In this document: positions 7,891-48,099 of the stretch, one piece after another
Layout of the letters: each line of letters opens with the position of its first letter
Numbering within the stretch: the stretch's first letter is position 1
DNA from: an uncultured Actinomycetota bacterium
GTDB lineage: Bacteria; Actinomycetota; Acidimicrobiia; Acidimicrobiales; RAAP-2
Assembly (NCBI GenBank): GCA_963794755.1
Contig: CAWCEX010000010.1
Coordinates: 617,621 to 681,620 of the forward strand
Direction of reading: 5' to 3'
DNA length: 64,000 nt
Position numbers and translations under genes: made by a program
Notes under the pieces: generated by a model
What the model saw: only the letters and a program-made list of their open reading frames with translations
Databases searched by the model: none
What the model was told of the DNA's origin: nothing

Positions 7891-9609
7891 ATGGCCGCTC
7901 TCTTCAAGAACTTCGCTGAAGTTTGTGAATGGGTGGCCGCCACCTCTCGCAAGAACGAGAAGGTGGACAAGGTTGCGGCCTATCTGCACGAATTACCTGC
8001 GCAGGAGGCCGGACTGGCTGCGCGATACTTGGGAGGAAATGCCTTTGCTGCCTGGGAAGAGCGAACATTGCAGGTGGGCGGCAACCTGCTATGGCGCGTT
8101 CTGGCCGAGGTTTCCGGAGACGAGGGGCAGCTAACAGAAGCCTTCCGGAAATATCGCGACTTGGGATTGGCCGCTGAAGAAGTCTTTGCTCGACGCCACG
8201 AAAACGGAGGCGTTCTCAGCCTGCGACAGCTGGCGGACGCATTCGATTCACTAGCCGAAGCGCGTGGACCAGCAGCGAAGATCGCACTGCTCAAAATCCT
8301 CCTCGCGCGATCCTCCGCTCAGGAAGCAAAATACATTGCCAAAATCATTCTTGGCGAGATGCGAATGGGGCTGAAGGAGAGCCTCGTTGAGGAGGCTCTC
8401 GCGAAGGCTTACGGCGCTGAGCTAGCGGGGGTGAAGCGCACTGCGATGCTGACTGGTGATGCCGCTGAAACCTTGCTGCTGGCGGCAGAACACCGGTTGC
8501 AAGATGCCCGGATGCGGCTGTTCCATCCTATCGGCTTCATGCTGGCGTCCCCGGCTGCAGACGCCAGCGAAGCTTTCACAGAGTTTTCGGACGCAATCGT
8601 TGAAGATAAGTACGACGGCATACGCGCCCAGTCTCACATAGAGTCGGCTACGGGTAAGATCCGCATCTACTCGCGCACGTTGGATGAAATCAGCGGAGCG
8701 TTTCCAGAGCTGGTTGCGCCACTCGCCAGCATTCAAGCGGACGCAGTGCTGGACGGCGAAGTGCTAGCTTGGAGCAATGGCCGTGCGCGTCCATTCCGCG
8801 AGTTGCAGAAGCGGCTTGGGCGCAAACGCGTAACTGCCGCAATGCAGCTGGATATTCCAGTGTCCTACGTGGTTTTCGACGTGCTGGCTTTGCATGGAGA
8901 GTTGACGATTGAGCGGCCTTTGCGCGAGCGCAAGAAGTTGCTACAAGAGTTGTTCGCCAGTCGCAAGATGGAAGAGGGCTTGCCACCGATTTCTGGATGG
9001 CTCGATTTCGGTGGCAGCGAGGCGCAGGCACCTCAAGACCGATTAGTGCTGGCCCCGGCTTTTGAGGCGACTTCGTCAGCGCATCTGGAAGAATTGTTTG
9101 CAGCCGCGCAGTCCCGTGGCAACGAGGGACTGATGATTAAAGCTGCCGATTCTGAATACAGCCCCGGGCGCCGCGGAGGAAACTGGCTGAAGCTCAAGCG
9201 CGAATTGGCAACGCTGGATGTGGTGATCACGGCGGCGGAATACGGCAACGGACATCGCGCGCAGGTGCTGAGCGACTACACTTTCGCAGTGCGCGACGGG
9301 GAGCGTTTACTCAACGTGGGCAAAGCATACACCGGACTTACGGATGCAGAAATTGCGCGCATGACGAAGTGGTTCGAGGAGCACACGCTGCGGCAACAGG
9401 GACACGTCCGCGAGGTAGAAGCGAAGAAAGTAATTGAGGTCGCCTTCAACGCCGTGATGCGCTCGGAGCGCCACGCCAGCGGATATGCGTTGCGCTTTCC
9501 CCGAATTGTAAGGCTGCGCGAGGACAAACCCGCCAGCGAAATCGATACTTTAGATAGAGTGCGGCAAATTTATGATCAGCAAGGCCGCGAGATTCAGACT
9601 GCATCCTGA
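7891..9609 (+). CDS. ATP-dependent DNA ligase (DBD-adenylation-OB)
   Basis: Motif I EDKYDGIR, LDGEV, EGLMIK, WLKLK and ALRFPR. Confidence 0.92.
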   Translation: MAALFKNFAEVCEWVAATSRKNEKVDKVAAYLHELPAQEAGLAARYLGGNAFAAWEERTLQVGGNLLWRVLAEVSGDEGQLTEAFRKYRDLGLAAEEVFARRHENGGVLSLRQLADAFDSLAEARGPAAKIALLKILLARSSAQEAKYIAKIILGEMRMGLKESLVEEALAKAYGAELAGVKRTAMLTGDAAETLLLAAEHRLQDARMRLFHPIGFMLASPAADASEAFTEFSDAIVEDKYDGIRAQSHIESATGKIRIYSRTLDEISGAFPELVAPLASIQADAVLDGEVLAWSNGRARPFRELQKRLGRKRVTAAMQLDIPVSYVVFDVLALHGELTIERPLRERKKLLQELFASRKMEEGLPPISGWLDFGGSEAQAPQDRLVLAPAFEATSSAHLEELFAAAQSRGNEGLMIKAADSEYSPGRRGGNWLKLKRELATLDVVITAAEYGNGHRAQVLSDYTFAVRDGERLLNVGKAYTGLTDAEIARMTKWFEEHTLRQQGHVREVEAKKVIEVAFNAVMRSERHASGYALRFPRIVRLREDKPASEIDTLDRVRQIYDQQGREIQTAS

Positions 9610-35664: not shown

Positions 35665-36006
35665 ATTTACCTCTGTTTGGGTTGGATGTTTCTGGTTGTC
35701 GGAATATCGAGTTTGATGCGTTACCTTCCCCTTGGAGCGTGCAAATTATGAGCTCTGCCGGAACCTTGCAGCATCTGAATTCCCGGCCCACGACTGACAC
35801 GTTGCCCTTCGGCTCTGACTGCTCCCATAACGGAACCACCGCGCGATTTTATCTGGGAAGATGACGCCACGTGAGTAGATGATGTGGTATTTTTGTGACC
35901 CTTCTGCAGCCGAAAACGCTTCAAAAAGGCGTTCCGCTTCTCTCGAGCGCAGAAGGAAATGTCGCGGCCATGGACAGTAGGTCCCGCCCACAATAGGAGA
36001 ACTGCC

Positions 36007-36399
36007 ATGCAGAAGCACCGAATCCTTGTGGTGGATGACGAGCGAGCCATCGCCTCTACACTCGCGGCGATATTCGAATCTCAAAGCTACGAGACCGCCA
36101 CGGCATACAGCGGAGAAGAAGCAGTTCAGGTGGCTGGTTCGTTTTGTCCCGATTTCATTGTCAGTGACGTGATGATGGGAGCGATGAGCGGCATCGAGGC
36201 TGCAATGGAAATATTGGACATGCTCCCGCGGTGCAAGGTGCTGTTCATTTCGGGTAACGCCACATACCGGGACTTGCTGGGAGATGCGCGGGCGAAGGGC
36301 TTCAATTTCGAAGTTCTCCAAAAGCCTGTGCTCCTGCCTGAACTGCTGGCAAGAATTTCCGAGGTTCTATTGCATCCAGCAAACCAAACCGCAGCATAA
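36007..36399 (+). CDS. Stand-alone response regulator receiver
   Basis: ILVVDDE, FIVSDVMM, FISG, LQKP. Confidence 0.85.
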   Translation: MQKHRILVVDDERAIASTLAAIFESQSYETATAYSGEEAVQVAGSFCPDFIVSDVMMGAMSGIEAAMEILDMLPRCKVLFISGNATYRDLLGDARAKGFNFEVLQKPVLLPELLARISEVLLHPANQTAA

Positions 36400-36472
36400 A
36401 AAGCCAATCTGGCGTTTGCGGCATCCAACGTTGGAAGAATGCTCGGCAGAAAGACGCACCCAGGAGGCTAAA

Positions 36473-36673
36473 ATGTTCCGGTTCGTCAGATCACTGTTCG
36501 GATGCGCTCACCACCATTGCACTTTTCCCATCACGTCCAAAAGTCCAGGCGCACCTTCATCACAAGGAAAACCGTCTGCAACCACGTACATCGTCTGCCT
36601 CGACTGCGGCAAGGAGTTCCCATACGATTGGCAGCGAATGAAGGTGGTTGAGTCGGCGAAACACGCAGCCTGA
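36473..36673 (+). CDS. Cys/His-rich microprotein, family A (GCxHxxC...CxDC)
   Basis: MFRFVRSLFGCAHHHCTFP..YIVCLDCGKEFPYDW; CAGGAGG RBS; paralogue at 57000-57191. Confidence 0.7.
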   Translation: MFRFVRSLFGCAHHHCTFPITSKSPGAPSSQGKPSATTYIVCLDCGKEFPYDWQRMKVVESAKHAA

Positions 36674-36917
36674 TTCTTCACTGGCAATTCATTCTGGCAA
36701 TTGTTGCCAAAAAACATGGCCCTCACATCACCACGCAAGTAACGTCCGGAACAACCTCCGAGCACGGCCTGCCTGATTTCTCCCCCGAGGCAAACATTTC
36801 CATGTTCCAGAGCACCCGAACGAGCATCCAATTCTGGATAAGCCAAAGGGGAACTATGGAAATGGAACACGATCATTCGCGTAAATTCGCCGTTCCTGCG
36901 GCGACGGCAGGCATATT

Positions 36918-37121
36918 ATGAAAAACATTGTCGAGGTGTTGAGGAAAAAAGAGATGGAGTTGCAGCAAATCCAAGCCGAAGTTGAAGCCTTGCGCGTTGC
37001 CTTGCGGCTTCTGTCGGAAGATGGTGAGAACCTCGCACGCCCGCTGGTGCCAACTGGATTACCGGAATCACGGGTAACGGAGATTAACACCGGCTCCAAC
37101 GCCACGCGTCAGTTTCCTTAA
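36918..37121 (+). CDS. Small coiled-coil hypothetical protein
   Basis: VLRKKEMELQQIQAEVEALRVALRLL heptad pattern. Confidence 0.6.
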   Translation: MKNIVEVLRKKEMELQQIQAEVEALRVALRLLSEDGENLARPLVPTGLPESRVTEINTGSNATRQFP

Positions 37122-37136
37122 GGAGATCGGGGTCGA

Positions 37137-38771
37137 ATGAAGCTGTCACACGCTGGTGTTGAACTGCGTCACGAAAAGCGCGATGCGCTCCTTGCGGGCC
37201 AACTGCTGGTTGTTGACCTGGTCTCGGAGAGCCCTGCACTCAAGACTCGCGGCATCGTTCTCAACATCAGCAAAGGTGGCATGGCGGTCCAAACATTCCG
37301 CCCGCTCGGCCAAGGAAAAATTACCGAGATCCAACTTTCTCTCCCCAGATTCTCCTCGTCTGCGGGCCGAGGGGTGGTGGAATGGGAAAAACAGGGCGGA
37401 GTTGCCGGCATTCGTTTTCTTCCCCCGCTGAAAACTTTGGCGGAATTGCGTCAGTGGGTCCAGCGCTATCCATCCAACCAGGAAACCGATTCTGCTCTGC
37501 CGCTGCTTGCCTGCCGGAGTACCCCCAGCGCAAGCGAGTTTGACACCACGCTGCACTTGTTCGCACACAGCGCCATGGCTCTTACCGGAGCCTCCGGTGC
37601 GGCGATTGCCCTTGGAAATATCGGCGGCATGGAATGTCGCGCGAGCATCGGAAGCGCGCCCGACCTGGGCGCACAGCTTCACCCAGACAGCGGAATCTCC
37701 GGCCACAGTCTGCGCACGGGCTCGGTGATCCTCTGCAACGATCTCCGGTCGGATTCGCGGGCGAACGCGGCTGCCGTCCTGCAGATGGATATACGATCAC
37801 TCGTCATTGTCCCCATTGCCCTGGCCGAGGAAGCCGAGAAAGTGGTGGGACTACTGGAGGTGTTCTCACCTAACGCGAACCACTTCGACGAGCGCCACAT
37901 TCAACAGTTGCAGCCATTGATGAATATTCTCGCCGAGGCGATCAAGGACGAGACCGACAACAACACTCCTGATTTGCTGGGCGCATCTGCGCCCGCTATC
38001 GCAGAGACCGTCGAACCGGAGGAACTCTCGCCCCATACACAGCCCGCTGATCGCCTCCATACGGTCGCTATGTCGGTCGCACTGCTCGTTTTAATAATTG
38101 CGGTAGCCTTATTTACCCCGCGGCTCCGAACCAGATCGTCAGGCAATGCCAATTCCCCGATCAGCGCGCCGCATAACGCCCAGCAGCCCGACGCCGTAGC
38201 AGCCACGAAGGCAATAATCGGGTTCAGTCCGTCGGTGATTAGCCAGAAGGTGGGAAAGACTTTCAACGTGGACGTGGTCGTGAAGGACGCGCGGAATCTC
38301 TCGTCTGTGCCGGTACAGATTCTCTATGATCCGCAGAAGTTGCAGTTCATCACCGTTACCAGTGGAGGCTTGCTTGACCGCGACGGCCAGACTGCCGCGC
38401 TGGTTCAACGCGTGAATTCATCGGCTGGACGCATCAACGTTTCCATCTCACGGCCATCTACTGCGCCCGGAATCTCCGGCGACGGAGTTGTTTTTACTCT
38501 TGCGTTTGCGGGCAAAGCTTCAGGACTCACTAGATTGCGCTTTGAGCAGACTGGCTTGCGCAACACATCGGCAAAGGCAATATCCGTCGATAGCTCTGAG
38601 GCGGTTGTCAACATCTCAAACGCAACAACTCCCGCCGCAAATACCCAGAATCACGGACCAACCGAAACGCGTTCCCTGCCCTCTGCGCCCACCGCGTTAT
38701 CTCGGAGCACCCCGGCTGATAGATCCGTACCACAATCCGGAGTGGACAGAAGCACCGCGATTCCGAAATAA
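37137..38771 (+). CDS. Membrane protein with PilZ-like, GAF, TM and cohesin-like domains
   Basis: N-terminal R..R/ NISKGG PilZ-like motifs, GAF (SGISGHSLRTG, VVGLLEVFS, F.ERH), one TM, and cohesin-like GKTFNVDVVV..YDPQKLQF. Confidence 0.65.
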   Translation: MKLSHAGVELRHEKRDALLAGQLLVVDLVSESPALKTRGIVLNISKGGMAVQTFRPLGQGKITEIQLSLPRFSSSAGRGVVEWEKQGGVAGIRFLPPLKTLAELRQWVQRYPSNQETDSALPLLACRSTPSASEFDTTLHLFAHSAMALTGASGAAIALGNIGGMECRASIGSAPDLGAQLHPDSGISGHSLRTGSVILCNDLRSDSRANAAAVLQMDIRSLVIVPIALAEEAEKVVGLLEVFSPNANHFDERHIQQLQPLMNILAEAIKDETDNNTPDLLGASAPAIAETVEPEELSPHTQPADRLHTVAMSVALLVLIIAVALFTPRLRTRSSGNANSPISAPHNAQQPDAVAATKAIIGFSPSVISQKVGKTFNVDVVVKDARNLSSVPVQILYDPQKLQFITVTSGGLLDRDGQTAALVQRVNSSAGRINVSISRPSTAPGISGDGVVFTLAFAGKASGLTRLRFEQTGLRNTSAKAISVDSSEAVVNISNATTPAANTQNHGPTETRSLPSAPTALSRSTPADRSVPQSGVDRSTAIPK

Positions 38772-38783
38772 ATCGCCGAAGGG

Positions 38784-39776
38784 CTACGGTTGCAGGAAAC
38801 TCGCCTGAAAAGCCCGCCGATTGCACTGCTCCACTTCCTTTTCCGTCAGCGCACCGATGTCTATAAGAAACTGCTGCTCCTTGTAAACGTTGGTATGGTA
38901 TAGCTCCGGGCCGTCGGTATTCACCGTAATGGAAACGCCATGAGCTACCAGCTTGCGGACGATGGACTTCAGCGCCCTAGCGTTGGGCACCATGCTGTTC
39001 TTGAGGTTAGAGGTCGGACAGAGTTCCAGCGTGATCTTTGCCGCGACGATTTCCTCCATGAGTTCTGGATCGCCTGCGGCGATAATCCCATGCCCGATGC
39101 GGTGCGGGACGATCTTTCTTACCACGTAGCGCAGCTCATCCGGGTCGCCGGTCTCGCCGCAGTGAACGGTGATCCCCAGCCCCGCTTCCTTGGCGCGCCA
39201 GAACAGTGGCGCGTGGCTCGCCATCGAAAATCCCCGCCGGTCCGGCCCCGCTAAATCGATCCCGACAATACCCTTGCCAACATACTTGATCGCTTTTTCT
39301 ACGATGATTTCGTTCTGTTCCCGGGTCAGCGTTCGATCCATCATCAGAATGAGTCCGGCCTTCACATTCGGATACTCAATCAAGGCCCGTTCCAGTCCCC
39401 AGCGAGCGGCGTTGATGATGTGGTCTAGGTCCCGTTCCCCGCGGCGATTGCGGAACATCGGGTTAAACCGCAATTCCTGCAACACCAGGTTGCACTTGCG
39501 GTATCCGCCGCCGATGACGCTAGCTACCGAATCCTGCATCGCTTCCGGCGATGACTGGATCAGCTCCGTCCAGTGATAGAAGCGCTCATGCATCTCTTTG
39601 AGGTTACGGTTGCGCTCCCGTTTCCCCATGGTGACCATGGCTTCGAATTGCCAGTAATCCTTGGTGGGAAGGCGTATCCCCTGGCGGTGTGCAATCGACC
39701 AGAGCACAGGCGGGTCGACCGCGCCTCCGAGGTGGGTATGTAATTCAGCGCGCGCAGTGGTGGTGCGGGGAGGCAT
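38784..39776 (-). CDS. Adenosine deaminase-family amidohydrolase
   Basis: ELHTHLGG, GIDLAG, VHCGE, RIGHG, LCPTSN, NTDGP. Confidence 0.85.
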   Translation of the reverse strand: MPPRTTTARAELHTHLGGAVDPPVLWSIAHRQGIRLPTKDYWQFEAMVTMGKRERNRNLKEMHERFYHWTELIQSSPEAMQDSVASVIGGGYRKCNLVLQELRFNPMFRNRRGERDLDHIINAARWGLERALIEYPNVKAGLILMMDRTLTREQNEIIVEKAIKYVGKGIVGIDLAGPDRRGFSMASHAPLFWRAKEAGLGITVHCGETGDPDELRYVVRKIVPHRIGHGIIAAGDPELMEEIVAAKITLELCPTSNLKNSMVPNARALKSIVRKLVAHGVSITVNTDGPELYHTNVYKEQQFLIDIGALTEKEVEQCNRRAFQASFLQP

Positions 39777-39815
39777 GGCTAGTAATAATACAGCGGTTTG
39801 CAAATAGTTTGTAGC

Positions 39816-40466
39816 TCATCGACTGTCGTTTTGGTGGTAACTCCCAAGCTCTAGTTCAGCCTGTGTTGAGCCAACCGTCTGACCATCCTTCAGCCCAACA
39901 AAATCAAAGTCGTTTGTGAAGCCCGGACGAAGCAAAGCCGATCGAATCAACATCCGTGTTTGCCGCCGGCGCAGTTGCCGTGTATTGTCCGATAGCAGCG
40001 CCCGGTACATGATAGAAAACCATCGTGCCTCCCGCACTCGCCACGCCCGCAAAATGAGTGTTCGGCGGAATCATGTCCACGGTGTAAATGGATGCTTGTG
40101 TTACCCCATCGACCGTGAGCGCACTCATGCTGGCGGCGCCAGTTCCGGAGTTGGAGAGACCCAGGGTAGAGCTGACGTTCTGCCCCCGCGCAGCTGATGT
40201 GGTGCTCGCGGACTTCAGCAGAACGACATTACTTTTAATAACGAAGGCGAGGGAGAGGCAGTGATTTGAACAGTGTTTGAGGGCTGGCTGCTAACCGTCT
40301 TGCCGGCCCCATCCGAAGAGTGGGGATTCGAGGTTGAGTCCTCGCTGTAGAGGAACTCGCCGCCGAGAACTCTACCCAAGGATGCCAGGATTTCACCCCT
40401 AATCCAACCCGAGAACACGAAACCGGGCGCAGTTGATAACCGCGCCCGGTCGAAATAAGGAAGCAC
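39816..40466 (-). pseudogene. Frameshifted remnant of a Thr/Ser-rich surface-protein domain (DUF11-like)
   Basis: Joined frames read PSNTVQIT..LLKSAS..GQNVSSTLGLSNSGTGAA..VDMIPPNTHF, resembling conserved-repeat domains; no intact ORF. Confidence 0.35.
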
Positions 40467-40899
40467 TCAAGCGCCGTTTGAGGGTACGGCAGCTAGGCTG
40501 AATGATGATGGAATGTCAGAGATTGTCGTTGCGTCGATAGATACCCTCCTTCACCCGCTTGTGGGTTTATGAAAAGTCCTCGCGCCTCGACAGTGTCCTC
40601 AGTGTAAGGTCTGGCGCAAGAGCATGCTGTAGGCATTAAACGCCGTTTGGAAATTGTTGCAAGCGGAAAATCACCTGAGATGTGACCTGCAGTAATCGGT
40701 ACTCTCCCATCAGTTCTAAGGGGCCGCTCTCAAGTTCGCACCAGCTCAGCGTGCCAGCACCTCGGAGAACCCAAACGCTTCGATTCCCAGAGATGGTGGG
40801 TTCAGGTGCTCACCGACCCAACCTCGGGCAACCCTGAGTTGCTGATCTGCTTCCGAGTAAATATCCGCTATTGCGCGAGCCAACCTGAGGAGTTCCTCG

Positions 40900-41247
40900 A
40901 TGTTTACAAGAGCGGTCGAATTGAGAGCCAAACCGGGAAAGACAAACAGGTTGTTCAGCGTCACAAGCGAAAGGGTGCTGCCTATTCTAAAAAAGCAGCA
41001 AGGGTTTCAGGGCGAGATCGTACTTCTCTCGAACACTGAACCCGACCGTATGCTGGTGCTAAGTTTCTGGAATAAGCGCGAGGACGCCGAGCGCCACCAC
41101 CGCGAGCAGTTCCCTCGGTTATTAGAGATGCTGCGCTCCTTGTACGAAGGTGAACCTTTGTTTGGTTCAGACTGCTCAATCCTACGTCTCGGCACATCCC
41201 TTCTGCCCCGCCCTGACCACAAAGCTCTCGGGAATACAGCAGAGTGA
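40900..41247 (+). CDS. ABM-like (dimeric alpha-beta barrel) protein; C-terminus possibly corrupted
   Basis: PILKKQQGFQGE..LVLSFW..REDAE pattern; sequence after ~41155 looks non-homologous. Confidence 0.65.
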   Translation: MFTRAVELRAKPGKTNRLFSVTSERVLPILKKQQGFQGEIVLLSNTEPDRMLVLSFWNKREDAERHHREQFPRLLEMLRSLYEGEPLFGSDCSILRLGTSLLPRPDHKALGNTAE

Positions 41248-41663
41248 AATTACTCCCGCATGAGCTTCTGTCCAAAGCCGAGGGGGCGTTGGCATTCGAT
41301 GGGAGGAAAACACTCCACCCCTTTCACGACCTGTGCCCATCTCCGGTTTCCACGAGACAAGACGGACGATCTGCCGTACCGAACGATTCGACCTTGCGCG
41401 GAGTGCCATGACCTAAGTCAGCCATTACCTACCAATAGAGGAACGAGGGCTGTCCGTAAGTGATGATGCTGGCAGGTCGGCTAAACACCGACTAATACCG
41501 TAGGTGTCACCTCACCCAGTCCGTGATCTTCCACTAACGGCTCCATCGTCCGGCATGCCGCAGTGAACTCATTCATCAAATGCGGCACTTATCGCCACCC
41601 CTCCCCCTCTCCGCTCCCCCACATCACCCCATCGCAACCGTGGCGTCTCGCCAGTGCGCTGGG

Positions 41664-42656
41664 GTGGCGACGACGAACTACGCAGGGTTAAGTCGAGGAC
41701 GGAAGGTGTATCCACAGGTAAGCTGTCACGTATCAAGCGCTGGTTCAGATTCGTAGTGAAGGTTACGATTAACGGAAAATCCACTTCGGCCTTCTTGATG
41801 TGAACTCAGCTGATGTACCAGCTGCGTTCGCGCGTAGTATGCAGTGCTATTCCCGCAAGGCCCTGCATCGTTGACTACAGCGGGGTGGCTACTAACGAGT
41901 CTTGTACCCCCGTCATGAGAGAGCTCAGACAGCGCTGACGTACTGAACCATTAGCTTACCCCAAAGTGACAGATGGTTCCGGTGCATGTAGATCCTTGTG
42001 GTTGGCAGGAGAATATTACTCGAACACGGCGGCGGGTTGCAGAGATAACAGTTAATGGCTGATTTACGTTCAAGAACTACACATTGATCCGCATCTTCTC
42101 AGTGCCTACGTTAATTTGACAAACACGGCGATAGAGCGGATTCAGCTGACATCTTTGAGTCACCGACTCCGACGGAGCTAGCCACATAAAGATGCGCTGA
42201 ATACGCTGCTATCGCCGTAGTTTGTCAAATTAAGTAGGCACTGAGAAGATGGGGATCAGATGTGTAGTTGTTGGACTAATCCGCCCGGAGCTGTTATCTC
42301 TGCAACCCGCCGCCGAGTTCGAGTAATATTCTCCGGCACCACAAGAAAACACATGCCCCGCAACCATTGTCATATGGGTTAATGGTCAGCGTAGTTCTAC
42401 TGAGCGCTCCGGCGGGGGTACAAGACTGGTATCTGTAGCCACCCCAGTGTAGTCAACGATCAGAGTGCCTTGCGGAGCCTGCACATTACGGAGAACGCGG
42501 CTGGTACATTCAGCTGAGATCAGTCAAGATAGGCCGATATGGATTTTCCATTAATCTAGTAACCTATCGCAGCGAATCTGAACCAGTGACGACTGAGTAC
42601 CTGTGGAAACATTCGGCGTGACTATAGACTCAACTGTAGTATTGAGTCGTCGCCAC
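41664..42656. repeat. Long imperfect inverted repeat (~490-bp arms, 31-nt loop, centre ~42171)
   Basis: Exact complementary blocks: 42027-42051/42291-42315 (25 bp), 42008-42025/42317-42334, 42092-42109/42234-42251, 41740-41753/42573-42586, 41664-41674/42646-42656. Confidence 0.92.
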
Positions 42657-45062
42657 CGCGACAGGCGTAGGACGAACCCACGCCGCTGTGCTCGTCAGAT
42701 TCTGAGTGCTGCCGTCACTGTAAGTACCGGTAGCCGTGAATTGTTGGTTATTGCCAAGCACGATTGAGGGTTTGCTGGGTGTGGCGGAAATGGACACTAA
42801 CACTGGTGAAGGTTTGTTTATCACTGCCGTCGTCGACCCGCTTATTGCCCCTAGCCCACCGGTTATCGTTGCCGAGCCTTGCCCGGAACCGGTGGCATAA
42901 CCGGAACCATTAATATTGACAATCGCCGTGTTGGATGACGACCACATGACAGAGCTTGTCAAGTTCGCCGTGCAGCCTCCAGTGTAGGTGCCAGTTGCGG
43001 TGAATTGCAGATTGCCGCCGATTGTAATCGCAGGACCGGACGGCGTAACCGCTATGGACAACAGTTGGGTAATGCACCCAACGATCAGAGTGGTGTTTGC
43101 AGAAACCGAACCCTTTGCCGCTGTGATCGTCGTTAAACCCATGCCGGAGCTGGTAGCGAGACCCTGCGAGCCCGTGCTGTTGCTGATAACGGCTACAGTC
43201 GCGGACGAACTGGTCCAGGTAACATTCGTGGTGATGCGTTGCGTGCTCTGGTCGGAGTAGGTGCCCGTCGCGGTGAATTGCTGTGAGGTCCCCAGTGCGA
43301 TCGCCGGATTTTGCGGAGTGATGCTGATAGTGACCAACGCCGGTGGGGTGATCGTCAGAGAAGCCGTGCCCGACACGCTGCCGGAGGTCGCGCTAATAGT
43401 TGTCGAGCCTACTGCAACGCTGGTGGAAAGGCCCACGGTCCCAGTGGCATTGCTTATGGTGGACACGGTACCGGCCGAAGAACCCCAGTAGACTGAGGAC
43501 GTCAGGTCGTGCGTGGTGCCGTCGGCGTAATTACCTGTCGACGTAAACGCTTGCGTTGTTCCCAACGGAATGAGAGCAGTTGCAGGCTTGATCTTGATCG
43601 AAACCAATGCCGCCGCTGTGACCGTCAGTGTCGTCGTCCCACTGATATTCCCGACCTTAGCGATAATGGTCGTACTGCCGGTCGCGGCGCTGTGCGCCAA
43701 GCCTGTGGAATCCACGGTTGCAACTGTCGATACGCTTGAACTCCAACTTGCAGTACTCGTCAGATTCCGGGTAGTCGAGTCCGTGTACATTCCTGTTGCC
43801 GTGAACTGCTGGCTCGTCCCGACAGATGCTATGGATGGATTAGCTGGAGTAATGGCGATCGAGTCCAACACTGCTGTTGTGATGGTCAAGATGGTCGAGC
43901 CGGAGACTGATCCTGAAGTCGCGGTGATGTTCGTCGTTCCCGTGGCAAGACTGCTTGCGAGCCCACTCGTTCCGGTGCTGTTGCTTATTGTGGCGACCAT
44001 CGCGGCCGATGAACTCCATTGCACCGTGGTAGTGAGATTTTGCGTGGTGTGATCGGTGAACGTACCCGTGGCTGCAAACTGCTGATCTGTACCGAGCGGA
44101 GTGGATGGGATGGCTGGCGTGATCGCAATGGACACTAGCTGCGCCGGTGAGACGGTGAGGGTTGTCGATTCCGTAACTGTGCCGGACATTGCAGATATCG
44201 TTGTGACGCCGACAGTGGCACTAGTTACGACCCCCGCCGCGGAAATCAAAGCGACCGCGCCAGCGGACGAACCCCAAGTAACAGCAGAGGTTAGGTTTTG
44301 AGTGCTGCCGTCGCTGAATGTCCCCGTCGCCATGAGCTTCTGGGTCGTACCGAGGGCAATCAGGCTATTCGCCGGAGTAATCGCAATCGACTGGAGCACA
44401 GCAGGCAGTACTGTTAACGACACAGAGTTCGCGGTGATCGAACCTGTCGAAGCAGTGATGCTTGTCCTTCCGTCTCCCCCGCTTTGGGCCAGGCCCACAG
44501 CATTGATTGTGGCTACGGACGGAGCGGAGGAAGTCCAGGTTACAAGGCTAGTAACGTTCTGGGCGGAACCGCCGGTAAAGGTACCGGTTGCCTCAAACTG
44601 TTGTGTTGTTCCGAGCTGGATTGATGCGCTCGCCGGTGTAACCGACAGGCCCTCCAGCGCCGCGGGCGTGACCGTCAGCGTCGTTTGTCCCGATACTCCC
44701 CCTGCCGAAGCGGTGATCGTCGTGATGCCAACCTCACTCGCAGTGCCCATACTCATACCTGATGGGTCACTCGTTACTATGCCGGGAGTCGACGAGGTCC
44801 AAATTGCAGTTGTGGTTAGGTTCCGTGTGCTGCCATCAGAGTATGTTCCGGTTGCCGCAAACTGCCGCGTCGTATGCAATGGCATCACGGCATTGGACGG
44901 GGTGATAGCAATTGAAACCAAAGTAGGTGCAGGCCTGTGACGCATAGCGAAGTCGAGACTGGCCGGAGCTGCGGAGACCTGCGCTGTGGAAACTTGCGCT
45001 GTGGCGCAAATCAAAAACAGAGCCGAGGCAAATAGCGACAACGTGATCCGATAGCGAAACAT
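42630..45062 (-). CDS. Secreted bacterial Ig-like (Big_2) repeat protein, 3' end truncated
   Basis: Signal peptide, then 8 complete ~90-aa repeats (L.SIAITP..QQF.ATGT..DG...W.SS..VATI..GL..T.I.A..G..T.LTVT) and a ninth broken at the inverted repeat. Confidence 0.88.
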   Translation of the reverse strand: MFRYRITLSLFASALFLICATAQVSTAQVSAAPASLDFAMRHRPAPTLVSIAITPSNAVMPLHTTRQFAATGTYSDGSTRNLTTTAIWTSSTPGIVTSDPSGMSMGTASEVGITTITASAGGVSGQTTLTVTPAALEGLSVTPASASIQLGTTQQFEATGTFTGGSAQNVTSLVTWTSSAPSVATINAVGLAQSGGDGRTSITASTGSITANSVSLTVLPAVLQSIAITPANSLIALGTTQKLMATGTFSDGSTQNLTSAVTWGSSAGAVALISAAGVVTSATVGVTTISAMSGTVTESTTLTVSPAQLVSIAITPAIPSTPLGTDQQFAATGTFTDHTTQNLTTTVQWSSSAAMVATISNSTGTSGLASSLATGTTNITATSGSVSGSTILTITTAVLDSIAITPANPSIASVGTSQQFTATGMYTDSTTRNLTSTASWSSSVSTVATVDSTGLAHSAATGSTTIIAKVGNISGTTTLTVTAAALVSIKIKPATALIPLGTTQAFTSTGNYADGTTHDLTSSVYWGSSAGTVSTISNATGTVGLSTSVAVGSTTISATSGSVSGTASLTITPPALVTISITPQNPAIALGTSQQFTATGTYSDQSTQRITTNVTWTSSSATVAVISNSTGSQGLATSSGMGLTTITAAKGSVSANTTLIVGCITQLLSIAVTPSGPAITIGGNLQFTATGTYTGGCTANLTSSVMWSSSNTAIVNINGSGYATGSGQGSATITGGLGAISGSTTAVINKPSPVLVSISATPSKPSIVLGNNQQFTATGTYSDGSTQNLTSTAAWVRPTPVAVATTQYYS

Positions 45063-45828
45063 AACTGCACCTCTTCTAACAGGAATAATTCTCCAACCTA
45101 CATATGGCAGCGTACTGAGCTATATTGCACGGTGCCGACAGATATGTTCGCCGTGCCTGGCAATTGCGACCAAAGTAGGACAGATTGCGACGGCCACTAG
45201 CCAGTTTGGTGTCTGGTGTTCCAGATGGGGCCCTTGGGGATGAGATAACAGAGGCAGCAGAGGTAGTTCGTAGTTGCGCTTAACCGGGAGACAGCCCGTT
45301 GAATATTTTGTACTAAACTAAGAAACACTGCAGTTCGGGTTTAAGGGTTATTACATTTGTAACTCCGTGGCTTGCCGAGGTCTGAGCTGCGCTGACCATT
45401 CGTTGAAACTTCTCGGACACACCTCGGGCGGGGGAGTTTAGGTGGGAATCAGATGGGGATACTTCAGTATGGAAAGTTCAACTACCTTGAGGAGCAGCCC
45501 TTTGAAACGGCTGCCGAGTGTGCGGAAAAGCGCCCGGTGTTTCTGCTGTTGTTTCAGTAGATGCTGTCTTGCCCGCAGAATGTGAGCAACCTTGACCATT
45601 TGTAACATTTTTCTGGCTTATTCGCTCAGCCCCATCCTCGCTGACCATTACGGACACCCAGTTGAATACTGGACTGGGTGTTGCTCTTCGCCGCGATCAT
45701 TGCGGGTGAAGTTGCAATTGGGTTCGTAATAAATACTCGGCTAGAGACCATTTCACCGCCGATTGAAAAGAAAGTCCGCCATGCCGGCTGTCTTTTCGGC
45801 AAACTCGACGAAACCGAGGATACCATGC

Positions 45829-46086
45829 TCATACATCGTCTGGCCTCCACAGCCTGAAACGCGGGTCATCGGTATACCTCTCGTCATACTTCTGGTTTGC
45901 TGTCTTCCAATCTGCCATCTGCATTGGCCTTTCGTCTTGCAGTCTGAACAGCTTTTCCAATTTCTTTATCGCAGCGATCTTCCGCTTTCCGGCTCTGCAA
46001 TCTAAAACCAGCAGCGATCTTTTATCAGGCAGTCTAAAGAGCTTTTCCAACCACTTTATTTCGGCAATGATCCTTTCGGCGTTCAT
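45829..46086 (-). CDS. Small hypothetical protein with internal duplication
   Basis: IAEIKWLEKLFRLPDKR / IAAIKKLEKLFRLQDER. Confidence 0.55.
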   Translation of the reverse strand: MNAERIIAEIKWLEKLFRLPDKRSLLVLDCRAGKRKIAAIKKLEKLFRLQDERPMQMADWKTANQKYDERYTDDPRFRLWRPDDV

Positions 46087-46277
46087 ATTGTTGCCTCACT
46101 TCGTTACCGCGCTCCGTGATAGAACCTGCGAAGACGGAAGTCTGAGCACACTAGACAGCTTCGGCCTTTTAGGATGCTGCCTTGTACTCTCTTCTGATAC
46201 AAACCTTTCTGGGCGGAAAAGTTGCAGGTTTCATTGGCACAGCTCTTGCTGGTAGGCCATCCAACCAAACAAAGCAA

Positions 46278-46305
46278 AGCCCCCCAGCCCGTCCGGCTGA
46301 GGGGC
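46278..46305 (-). terminator. Terminator-like hairpin
   Basis: AGCCCCCAGCC-CGTCC-GGCTGAGGGGCT with a T-rich tail on the minus strand. Confidence 0.45.
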
Positions 46306-46675
46306 TAAACACTTCTACCGGCGACTATTTAACGCGGCCGTATTCACGCCCCGCCTTACGCCAAATCTGTAGCTATACGATTTTGCATACCCCACGCCAA
46401 CGCGCCCCGAAATACACCGCGGGCGGATAAACATAGCCGGGACCGCGAGGTGAGTTACTTGGAGTACGATGGGTTTTTGAGAGAAGTGGGGCGGCCCTCC
46501 GCGTCCTTGTCCTGCATCTTTGGCCATGGCTTTGAGCAACCTTGACCATTCCAGCACTTGCTTCCTGCTACGCCCTTTTCCTTTGAGATACCATTGCAAC
46601 GCTACAGTGCGAAGCGGCAGAGCTGTTATGCTCCGCCGCTTCAGATTCGCGCTTCGCCAAATTCAGCAGCAAGGG

Positions 46676-47239
46676 TTAGTGGCGTCCACCACCACCATGT
46701 GAGCCACCACCGCCACTATGACCGCCACTGGCATGCCCCCCACCATGAGAGCCACCACCAGCGTGCGAACCGCCACCGCCACCGCGAGAACCGCCACCGC
46801 TACGCGCAGCTACGGTGTGGGTGCCGCCACCGTGATACCCACCGCCACGACTAGAGCGTAGTCCCGATGAGCCTCGTCCACCGCCGTATCCTCGGCCGCC
46901 GCCGTATCCGCCTCTGGCGACATACCTTCCTCCACCACCACCGCCGAAGCGATGACCACCCCAGCCGTGGCTATATCCCCAATTCCCCCACGGGCCCACG
47001 CCTAGGAAGATGCCGTTATAGAAATAGCCCGGCCCATAGAAACCCATGGGTGCGCAGCCATACGGTGAGTAGTCATAGTAGCCATAGGTACATACTGGCG
47101 GATTTACGCTGATAATAACTTGCGCGTTGGCCTTTGGCACTACGACCAGGGATGCGAATAAAGCTGTTGTACCGATCAGAAGCAGACTGTTCATTGCAAA
47201 CTTGTGAGCCCAAAAAGCTGCACGCTTGACTTGCCACAT
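46676..47239 (-). CDS. Secreted Tyr/Gly-rich protein with a Gly/His/Arg low-complexity tail
   Basis: GAGG RBS, signal peptide ending ANA-Q, PPVCTYGYYDYSPYGCAP, GG-rich tail. Confidence 0.75.
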   Translation of the reverse strand: MWQVKRAAFWAHKFAMNSLLLIGTTALFASLVVVPKANAQVIISVNPPVCTYGYYDYSPYGCAPMGFYGPGYFYNGIFLGVGPWGNWGYSHGWGGHRFGGGGGGRYVARGGYGGGRGYGGGRGSSGLRSSRGGGYHGGGTHTVAARSGGGSRGGGGGSHAGGGSHGGGHASGGHSGGGGSHGGGGRH

Positions 47240-47340
47240 TTTGTTTCCTCTTTATTGTCCGAAGGGCTTTTGATGTAGCGTTCCAGAATCACACGCTCGA
47301 TAACAGCCACCAATCTTCGGAACCGACTTTCTTCTTTAGG

Positions 47341-47466
47341 CTACGGCCTGATGACGACGGTAGTGTGATGGTGATGATGATGGCGATGGTGTCTTGCGGC
47401 GAATGCTGGCATTGCCGCGCTCAGCAGCAGAACACAACTCAGTAAAGCGATCATTGACTTTTTCAA
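47341..47466 (-). CDS. Secreted His-rich micropeptide (41 aa; below the ORF-track cutoff)
   Basis: GGAGA RBS, TTG start, MKKSMIALLSCVLLLSAAMPAFA-ARHHRHHHHHTTVVIRP*. Confidence 0.7.
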   Translation of the reverse strand: MKKSMIALLSCVLLLSAAMPAFAARHHRHHHHHHTTVVIRP

Positions 47467-47734
47467 TGTATTTCTCCGGCGAACGTCCTTAGGAGCATTC
47501 AGCCTCTAGCAGCTTCAGTATTCCAACACTCAACGTACTACGCTGAGCAATCCGATACAGTCGCGGCAAGTTATCGAAATAAATGTTCACAGGCAGGAGA
47601 ATTCCGCAGCGGCGCCTGATTAACATTTAGTCTGAGAGCAGAACAATTCAAGACATCCAAGATCGCGGATCGACGGGGCGAGTATTCGCATGCTGCCATG
47701 CGGAGCACTTAAATTGGTGATAGGCTCCCCTGTC

Positions 47735-47998
47735 ATGAAGCCCGTGGAGCGGGAATTCGTTACTCTGCCGGAACTGCGTCGGGGCGACGCTTGCGTTATG
47801 ACTGTGGAGCGAGGTGCCTATTTGCGCGTGAAGGTCGTGGGCGTCAAGCCAATCAAAAACATCCTGCTCTACACCCCCACGATTCTCAGGACAGTATCGA
47901 CAACTGAATTCGTTGCCGCGGGCGAGGATGTGTACGCATGCGCTTTCCCGCCTAGCAAACTATTCGAACGGGTCTTTCTTGAGGGCGAAGATAATTAG
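47735..47998 (+). CDS. Small hypothetical protein
   Basis: Beta-rich 87-aa ORF; no family recognised. Confidence 0.4.
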   Translation: MKPVEREFVTLPELRRGDACVMTVERGAYLRVKVVGVKPIKNILLYTPTILRTVSTTEFVAAGEDVYACAFPPSKLFERVFLEGEDN

Positions 47999-48099
47999 CT
48001 CCGTAGGCAGCAGGATTACCAGTGCTCCGTGTACAACGGGCTCACAGCAGAAGGCGATCATACCCCTCACGTTGGAACTCACCCGCAATCAGTCAGGCT

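Follow-up and report, generated by a model that had tools for sequence, protein, structure and literature searches.

With a probability of about 0.88, the imperfect palindrome at the 3' end of the Ig-like gene arose when consensus building or polishing blended a single 972-nt segment in its colinear and inverted orientations, and it is not a real DNA structure. The window analysed here comprises 64 kb (C10:617621-681620) within an 842-kb contig of the 2.85-Mb genome. Unless stated otherwise, coordinates refer to this window; the features of the locus are listed in Table 1.

Table 1. Features at the palindromic locus (window coordinates).
Feature	Position	Strand	Basis or content
ABM-domain gene, intact, 115 aa, convergent with the Ig-like gene	40900..41247	+	Pfam ABM, E = 1.8e-8
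Intergenic sequence between the convergent genes, real, including the C-rich run 41595-41630	41248..41638	.	agreement with L008
Probable blended segment, 1044 nt	41639..42682	.	apparent consensus mix of the 972-nt L008 8381-9352, colinear and inverted
Left "arm"	41639..42156	.	plus strand similar to the C-terminal domain's first half, mirrored; minus strand similar to its true second half and the gene end
"Loop"	42157..42187	-	encodes LYVASSVG; genuine Ig-like coding sequence in colinear order
Right "arm"	42188..42682	.	largely minus-strand sequence from the C-terminal domain's true first half; inverted bases interspersed
Ig-like ORF (Big_2 x8), 810 aa, probably ended early by the blend	42630..45062	-	window ORF
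Real Ig-like gene, about 1077 codons	41753..45062	-	Big_2 repeats and an unnamed C-terminal domain of ~250 aa

As written in the sequence, the left arm pairs with the reverse complement of the right arm in a gapped alignment of 423 matches, 48 mismatches and 50 gap events (71 bases), corresponding to 78% identity. Searched against itself by blastn, the palindrome gave E = 2.5e-167, the sole self-palindromic match across the 2.85-Mb genome. Arm identity was 0.90 adjoining the centre and fell to 0.68 at the outer ends, and the 31-nt loop contains GAGTC-acc-GACTC and CTCC-gac-GGAG. On these points the preliminary description, which reported reverse-complementary arms with many indels, two mini-hairpins in the loop and similarity fading outward, proved accurate, with the arm limits now placed as in Table 1. 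The gaps between the arms were mostly of 1 nt (37/50), and only 2/50 had lengths that are multiples of three; substitutions comprised 29 transversions versus 19 transitions. This spectrum of differences is unlike that of mutation. Note that the longest run of the genome without an open frame of at least 100 aa is 41324-42632.

The Ig-like gene aligned colinearly with its homologue at L005 through residue 1269, and in the homologue comparison P0123 aligned with P0049. No internal palindrome was present in the homologue genes. By blastn, residues 1042-1128 of the L005 gene matched the plus strand at 41864-42146 (E = 9e-27), and residues 1176-1259 matched the minus strand at 42030-41768 (E = 2e-10). 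Across 41808-42095, 136 bases agreed with the domain's first half (mirrored) as well as with its second half (colinear), 64 with the first only, 62 with the second only, and 26 with neither. In the right arm, inverted-type bases predominate at 42520-42650, and 42527-42562 corresponds to mirrored sequence from the far end of the gene. At the turn, 42191-42168 encodes eight residues (LYVASSVG) exactly matching residues 1131-1138 of P0049, and in the per-base comparison with L008 the loop consists of bases classed as colinear-only or as fitting both orientations, with a single inverted-only exception. Judged by this composition, each arm appears to be a mixture of two different sequences, and the two are not copies of one. 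The earlier view of the arms as broken copies of the same coding sequence was correct in that both carry broken C-terminal coding sequence of the Ig-like gene; it did not account for the mixing of two sequences in each.

Sister loci were found through cluster members of the 810-aa ORF and of the ABM protein. L008, L011 and L012 originate from three other samples and were assembled independently, from the window's strain or one close to it. They share with the window the gene order Big_2 gene, convergent ABM gene and adenosine deaminase. The locus contains no palindrome in any of the three, and its sequence is colinear with the homologues; across the segment, L008 and L011 are 100% identical. 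The contig_N names and the 1-nt G/C indels of these assemblies suggest a nanopore/Flye-type pipeline. An apparent +1 frameshift is common to L008 and L011 (L008 ~8761, corresponding to window ~42260).

Compared with L008, the window contained 86 mismatches and 151 gap columns in 41475-42724 and zero mismatches in 40725-41474 and in 42725-43724, with 1 gap column in 41225-41474. The limits between clean and blended sequence are sharp, at 41638/41639 and 42682/42683. At the latter, LTSTAAW is followed by VRPTPVAVAT in the window versus SSSAPGVAT in L008. The true segment measures 972 nt (L008 8381-9352), and the stop codon at L008 9233-9235 maps to window 41755-41753.

Because the same adjacency occurs in three independent assemblies, the left and right flanks are, by the evidence of these sequences, true neighbours, and the suggestion that the two halves of the contig may not belong together can be set aside. 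The surroundings of the palindrome were likewise cleaner than first described. The ABM gene had been considered unrecognisable after ~41155; its 115-aa protein has full-length, near-identical cluster members on four other contigs, and no mismatch to L008 occurs from 40725 onwards. It is not part of the artefact. Faint traces of the arm had been proposed to extend to ~41520, and the C-rich stretch at 41595-41630 had been taken for noise. We found no mirrored similarity of 41520-41638 to the far side; in the per-base comparison this interval differs from L008 at 41619 and 41638 only, and the C-rich run, which agrees with L008 except at 41619, is real intergenic sequence.

The locus is located within a variable, lower-GC island for which species-level synteny is unavailable. 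A search of 40 relatives with the DNA of 40600-43200 returned no homologue, and searching 60 genomes of the genus with the ABM protein was likewise without a match. When the L005 and L006 homologue loci were compared with the window by tblastx, synteny was confined to the Ig gene, the remainder being noise. An exact look-up of the 810-aa ORF returned no record, the C-terminal domain of the Ig-like gene could not be named from Pfam or NCBIfam, and the second half of this domain was not found elsewhere in the genome.

The window segment aligned to L008 8381-9352 in both orientations. Classifying each base of 41639-42680 against the two alignments, we found that 604/1042 fitted both orientations, 242 the colinear orientation only and 196 the inverted orientation only, leaving 0 that fitted neither. 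In controls, the number of bases fitting neither was 196 for shuffled sequence and 33 for a simulated noisy fold-back. The edit distances of the segment to the colinear and to the inverted sequence were 229 and 292, and their sum of 521 is close to the distance of 498 between colinear and inverted sequence; a noisy copy of the colinear sequence, analysed as a control, was still 497 edits away from the inverted one. The sum overshoots the geodesic by 23, so that a small number of bases may be real errors instead of picks between the two versions. Random 50:50 interleaves of the two orientations had an arm identity of 0.74 ± 0.01, versus 0.75 observed, while the true sequence alone gave 0.54 in the same comparison. 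Thus, every compared base fits an orientation, the edit distances are near-additive and the interleaves reproduce the arm identity, which argues for a blend of the two orientations.

In the preliminary description the palindrome was attributed to a nanopore fold-back read, i.e. a chimeric long read (template-then-complement or snap-back) on which the contig was built and which brought together two loci from separate places. We consider this very unlikely. A palindrome rich in 1-nt indels, with both arms broken and no second such structure in the genome, is what this origin would produce, and known fold-back palindromic reads and inverted-duplication misassemblies resemble the present case as palindromes in long-read assemblies with small indels and broken genes. 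In contrast to those, nothing is duplicated here: the length of the locus is kept (1044 versus 972 nt), no extra arm is gained, and no flank is lost, the flanks being neighbours in the three other assemblies. Moreover, the turn is genuine gene sequence, colinear with the homologues and free of adapter. In the left arm, the minus strand still carries the domain's second half as in the true gene, stop included; our own first reading, in which a fold-back had cut the gene in mid-domain, was dropped once this second half was seen. Raw-read noise of ~11% per arm was considered as well and ruled out by the lack of bases outside the two orientations, such bases being produced by the simulated noisy fold-back. 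A one-sided, one-breakpoint fold-back cannot supply the mirrored far-end sequence at 42527-42562 of the right arm, whereas opposite-end material in both arms needs a two-breakpoint inversion. Mirrored Big_2 sequence was sought to the left of 41639 and not found. The earlier attribution holds insofar as the hairpin stems from assembly and not from biology; neither its fold-back mechanism nor its joining of two loci does. Equally improbable in our assessment is a real inverted duplication or palindromic rearrangement of template-switch origin, by which the Ig-like gene would have lost its 3' end and whose sequence would have decayed since. The short exact blocks within imperfect arms, and the small natural hairpin in the middle, would fit such a history, but a duplication would add sequence, and the length is unchanged. 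Mutation cannot yield bases that agree at once with two unrelated sequences, the domain's first half in mirror image and its second half in colinear order; no "new" base was detected (0/1042 match neither orientation), and neither the indels nor the substitutions show a mutation-like spectrum. The mismatch-free flanks relative to L008 imply too little time for an arm divergence of 22%. The palindromic shape is all that speaks for a linear replicon terminating here in a hairpin, or for transcription of the Ig gene into a long dsRNA hairpin, and with colinear flanks at ~659 kb into the contig the chance of either is close to nil. All of these biological alternatives, which had been offered previously, were rejected because the palindrome is missing in all other assemblies of the locus and the position lies inside an 842-kb contig.

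A programmed invertible element, in which a site-specific recombinase flips the segment as an intragenic inverton or phase switch and the blend is the footprint left behind, has somewhat more in its favour and is nevertheless improbable. The two sharp, symmetric limits are as expected of a two-breakpoint inversion, near-balanced inversion mixtures are known to spoil polishing (PMC9980784), and the gene specifies a protein of surface type, a class commonly subject to phase variation (PMC11892184). However, the limits of the true sequence are without significant inverted repeats at or near them: the best pair (10/11 nt) is located 23 nt inside the ends, and inverted-repeat alignments scored 15-20, whereas shuffled sequences averaged 12.5-18 and equalled or exceeded the observed score in 9-55% of cases. 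Neither tyrosine nor serine recombinases (PF00589/PF00239) were detected in C10:617621-681620, the nearest matches being at C10:298 kb, more than 300 kb away, and on contig C6. The flipped form would have no alternative C-terminus, with a stop 15 codons past the breakpoint. L008, L011 and L012 are all colinear, and the blend itself is the only trace of the inverted state; scans of JGI metagenome contigs returned 0 matches for the inverted junction and 0 for the colinear junction as well. For the blend itself, the closest precedent is the fim-switch of Klebsiella pneumoniae INF277, where a near-50:50 mixture of orientations caused long-read polishing mistakes (Wick et al. 2023, PMC9980784). Both cases have a dense error cluster in a short segment with two competing orientations and clean flanks, and the resulting sequence matches no real molecule. 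In contrast to INF277, the competing orientations are here deduced from the sequence and not seen in reads, the segment (972 nt) is mostly intragenic and without flanking inverted repeats, and the blend has been analysed base by base and behaves as a near-geodesic mixture. If the flipped version is real, it would resemble intragenic invertons (Chanin et al., bioRxiv 10.1101/2023.03.11.532203) in having one inversion end within a gene and a premature stop. Such elements are, however, defined by flanking inverted repeats and flipped by invertases, neither of which was found here, and no assembly shows a cleanly flipped state of this locus.

Under the favoured reading of a two-orientation blend, the sequence written at 41639-42682 would be present in no cell. 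The 972-nt stretch, which begins at codon ~794 in the Big_2 gene and ends 117 nt beyond the stop, would have been built from two conflicting versions, one colinear and the other flipped end to end. At the roughly 60% of positions where a gapped alignment finds the versions in agreement, their common base would be retained; at disagreeing positions, the consensus base would be drawn from one version or the other. Mixing a sequence with its reverse complement in this way would yield an imperfect palindrome in which 1-nt indels are numerous and all reading frames are broken. We infer that one or more inverted reads, or an inverted draft, were force-aligned over the ~1-kb segment during long-read draft consensus or polishing. 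Later polishing was presumably unable to mend the blend, because reads would cease to map there. Certain aligner settings may force an alignment across a 1-kb inversion. The odds that the flipped version reflects a real inversion allele in the sampled population, as opposed to a technical product, are roughly even. More narrowly, a genuine ~972-bp inversion allele that exists beside the colinear allele in the population, without recognisable flanking inverted repeats or a nearby invertase, is a tentative possibility that we hold to be on the unlikely side.

The palindrome is not a real feature and in itself has little biological import. In the public genome the Ig-like gene is cut short at 810 aa, where about 1077 codons would be correct, and 41639-42682 calls for correction or masking. 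Since the contig halves are correctly joined, there is no need to split the contig. Given a clean sequence from a relative, a simple test separates a two-orientation blend from fold-back chimeras and real palindromes: every base of a blend agrees with at least one orientation, and its edit distances to the two are additive. The present blend may also flag a real inversion variant. If the inversion allele exists, the flipped state would remove a ~280-residue tail, including the unnamed C-terminal domain, from the ~1077-residue Big_2 surface protein. The allele would then act as a structural switch of OFF type, or be a strain variant of recent origin, arising by a route other than that of a classical inverton.

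The deposited sequence contains the inverted repeat of the preliminary description. By gapped local alignment, the left arm pairs with the reverse complement of the right arm (see table) with 423 matches, 48 mismatches and 50 gap events over 71 bases (78% identity), and ungapped blocks reach up to 60 nt. Both of the mini-hairpins named earlier are present within the 31-nt loop, and similarity is indeed best centrally, arm identity being 0.90 close to the centre and fading to 0.68 at the outer ends. Single-base events make up 37 of the 50 gaps, only 2 of which are multiples of three, and transversions outnumber transitions (29 and 19). In a whole-genome self-comparison, this repeat was the sole self-palindromic match in the 2.85-Mb, 11-contig genome (E = 2.5e-167), with a gap density (50 in 887 columns) exceeding that of every paralogue pair. 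The genome's longest stretch without a stop-free frame of at least 100 aa spans 41324-42632.

Other contigs were reached via the protein clusters of the Ig-like ORF and the ABM protein. L008 (ENA ERZ25039484, contig_27639), the same locus in an independent assembly, keeps the window's gene order (Big_2 gene, convergent ABM gene, adenosine deaminase, cohesin/GAF) and lacks the palindrome. Across 40725-41474 and 42725-43724 it showed 0 mismatches to the window, and in 41225-41474 a single gap column, compared with 86 mismatches and 151 gap columns inside 41475-42724. The L008 gene is colinear with the homologous protein P0049 and, past one frameshift, encodes a complete C-terminal domain up to the stop. 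L011 (ERZ25039493) is 100% identical to L008 across the segment, and L012 (ERZ25039590), from a more distant strain, is likewise colinear. Since the three contigs agree, the flanks are genuinely adjacent and clean colinear sequence is the norm; the join in the contig is correct, contrary to the suspicion that its two halves might not be neighbours. Nor do the faint traces to ~41520 and the C-rich noise at 41595-41630 hold up: per base, 41520-41638 agrees with L008 except at 41619 and 41638, and sequence left of 41639 showed no mirrored counterpart on the far side. The ABM gene, described as unrecognisable after ~41155, is intact, with full-length cluster members on four other contigs.

L008 and L011 share a +1 frameshift at L008 ~8753-8768 (window ~42260), where both read ACACACCTGATC, L012 reads ACACAC-TGATC and L005, a contig with a homologous Ig-like gene, reads ACACCCTGATC. 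It splits the gene into a 929-aa ORF and an out-of-frame C-terminal half-domain, and is either a real pseudogenising mutation of the lineage or a systematic basecalling error.

The nearest homologues of the Big_2 ORF are P0049 (1266 aa) and P0088 (1149 aa), in which the Big_2 repeats are followed by an unnamed C-terminal domain of ~250 aa. Both arms encode its first half, frameshifted, but they are not, as had been claimed, two copies of one coding sequence: the same DNA also resembles a second, unrelated sequence. The domain's second half was not found elsewhere in the genome and lies in the left arm, on its minus strand. The loop codes for LYVASSVG, the exact continuation of the homologue sequence, and at the DNA level the homologue gene can be aligned colinearly from the final Big_2 repeat, across the centre, as far as its own stop at about 41740. 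By blastn, the mirrored match of the first half overlaps the colinear match of the second. A gene cut mid-domain by a fold-back was rejected on these grounds. No comparable symmetry was found within the homologue genes. Thus, one DNA stretch resembles two unrelated sequences at once, which is not a product of mutation.

Features of the palindromic region and its neighbours (window positions)
Feature	Position	Strand	Remark
Big_2 ORF, eight repeats	42630-45062	-	ORF as deposited
ABM ORF, 115 aa	40900-41247		Intact
Left arm	41639-42156		
Right arm	42188-42682		
Mirrored match, first half of C-terminal domain	41864-42146	+	blastn, E = 9e-27
Colinear match, second half of C-terminal domain	42030-41768	-	blastn, E = 2e-10

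The C-terminal domain itself had no Pfam or NCBIfam match. In P0049 it occupies residues 1015-1266 (VQAPQGTCIVDYSGVAT...GEYYSNSAAGC...INVVSFTS), equivalent to window ~41753-42560 (minus strand) in the true gene. On L006 2612-7195 (ENA ERZ25039454 contig_14150), P0088 carries it twice, at residues ~385-640 and ~890-1149, and the following 277-aa gene holds a third copy; this threefold occurrence may reflect tandem expansion or assembly duplication.

Window 41639-42680 aligns with L008 8381-9352 in both orientations. Among its 1042 bases, 604 match both orientations, 242 the colinear one only and 196 the inverted one only, leaving 0 that match neither; the corresponding last count was 196 in a shuffled control, 33 in a simulated fold-back (11% error per arm) and 16 in a noisy colinear copy. 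The unit-cost edit distances of the segment to the colinear (229) and inverted (292) versions sum to 521, barely exceeding the 498 between the two orientations, so that the segment lies almost on a shortest route from one to the other. A noisy colinear copy remains 497 edits from the inverted version. Arm identity, taken by one and the same measure, was 0.75 in the window, 0.74 ± 0.01 in random 50:50 interleaves of the orientations and 0.54 in the true sequence, and the distance of the segment to its own reverse complement was 253 (~250 expected by hand calculation for an independent choice at each differing site). The segment is a sequence merged with its own reverse complement, a single cause from which the palindrome, its imperfection, the indel-rich spectrum and the broken frames all follow. 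It represents an assembly error of a known kind, here in unusually clear form.

The ~1 kb hairpin had been attributed, as the most likely cause, to a nanopore fold-back read joining two loci. The limits of the blend are sharp and symmetric, and the outer right arm holds mirrored sequence of the segment's far left end; it follows that the flipped component included two breakpoints, with the inverted segment set between the two flanks. A fold-back, as a one-breakpoint event, is unable to supply this. Most likely, inverted and colinear versions were force-aligned over the ~1-kb segment in draft consensus or polishing, and reads would then map poorly to the blend, allowing it to persist. Polishing errors at near-50:50 orientation mixtures have been described (Wick et al., PMC9980784). 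Among the sister assemblies, contigs are named contig_N and most differences are 1-nt indels, largely of G or C; this suggests a nanopore/Flye-type pipeline.

The flipped version is unlikely to be a real, programmed state of a classical inverton. Flanking inverted repeats define invertons (10.1101/2023.03.11.532203), and no significant ones were found. Moreover, tyrosine/serine recombinase genes are absent from the window, L008, L011 and L012 are all colinear, and the flipped allele just truncates the ORF at 809 aa. Between a real inversion allele of some kind, minority or balanced, and a technical origin, the odds are roughly even. A clean two-breakpoint inversion in place is not known as a common library artefact, which favours a real allele, as do the error-free flanks, which speak against coverage so low that one odd read tips the vote; on the other hand, one inverted read serving as draft backbone could leave the same blend. 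JGI contig scans found neither the inverted nor the colinear junction and thus carry no information on orientation.

The surrounding locus showed further variation. L012 5727-6331, corresponding to window ~41625-41630 just downstream of the Ig gene, holds a ~545-nt insertion with a direct repeat of 60 nt (85% identity) on its two sides. Because this is within about 10 nt of the blend's left limit, the site may be prone to rearrangement. Window 40315-41258 (ABM gene and ~600 nt upstream) has a 92% identical copy in another genomic setting (L009, L010), where the ABM module adjoins a catalase-peroxidase and a FUR-family gene, as it does by gene order in L013; this suggests that the module moved or was duplicated. 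From L011 10019 onwards the match to the window ends, at window 40980 within the ABM gene, and an IS21-type IstB-like ATPase and transposase follow, probably an insertion sequence that landed in this gene. Two smaller clusters of differences from L008, at 40475-40724 (19 gap columns) and 45475-45724 (17 mismatches and 15 gap columns), may represent genuine indels between strains in intergenic sequence. Elsewhere in the genome, the reverse complement of the last 1085 nt of contig C9 (G000 C9:126071-127155) shows 99.8% identity to an internal part of contig C10 (C10:548192-549276); a repeat or mobile element may have terminated C9 here.

GC content is about 0.48-0.58 over most of 36000-48000 (genome about 0.60), and no DNA homologue of the locus was found among 40 related genomes; the locus looks like a variable island. 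The palindrome is real in the file but not in the organism, in which the Ig-like gene should have about 1077 codons, ending near 41755.
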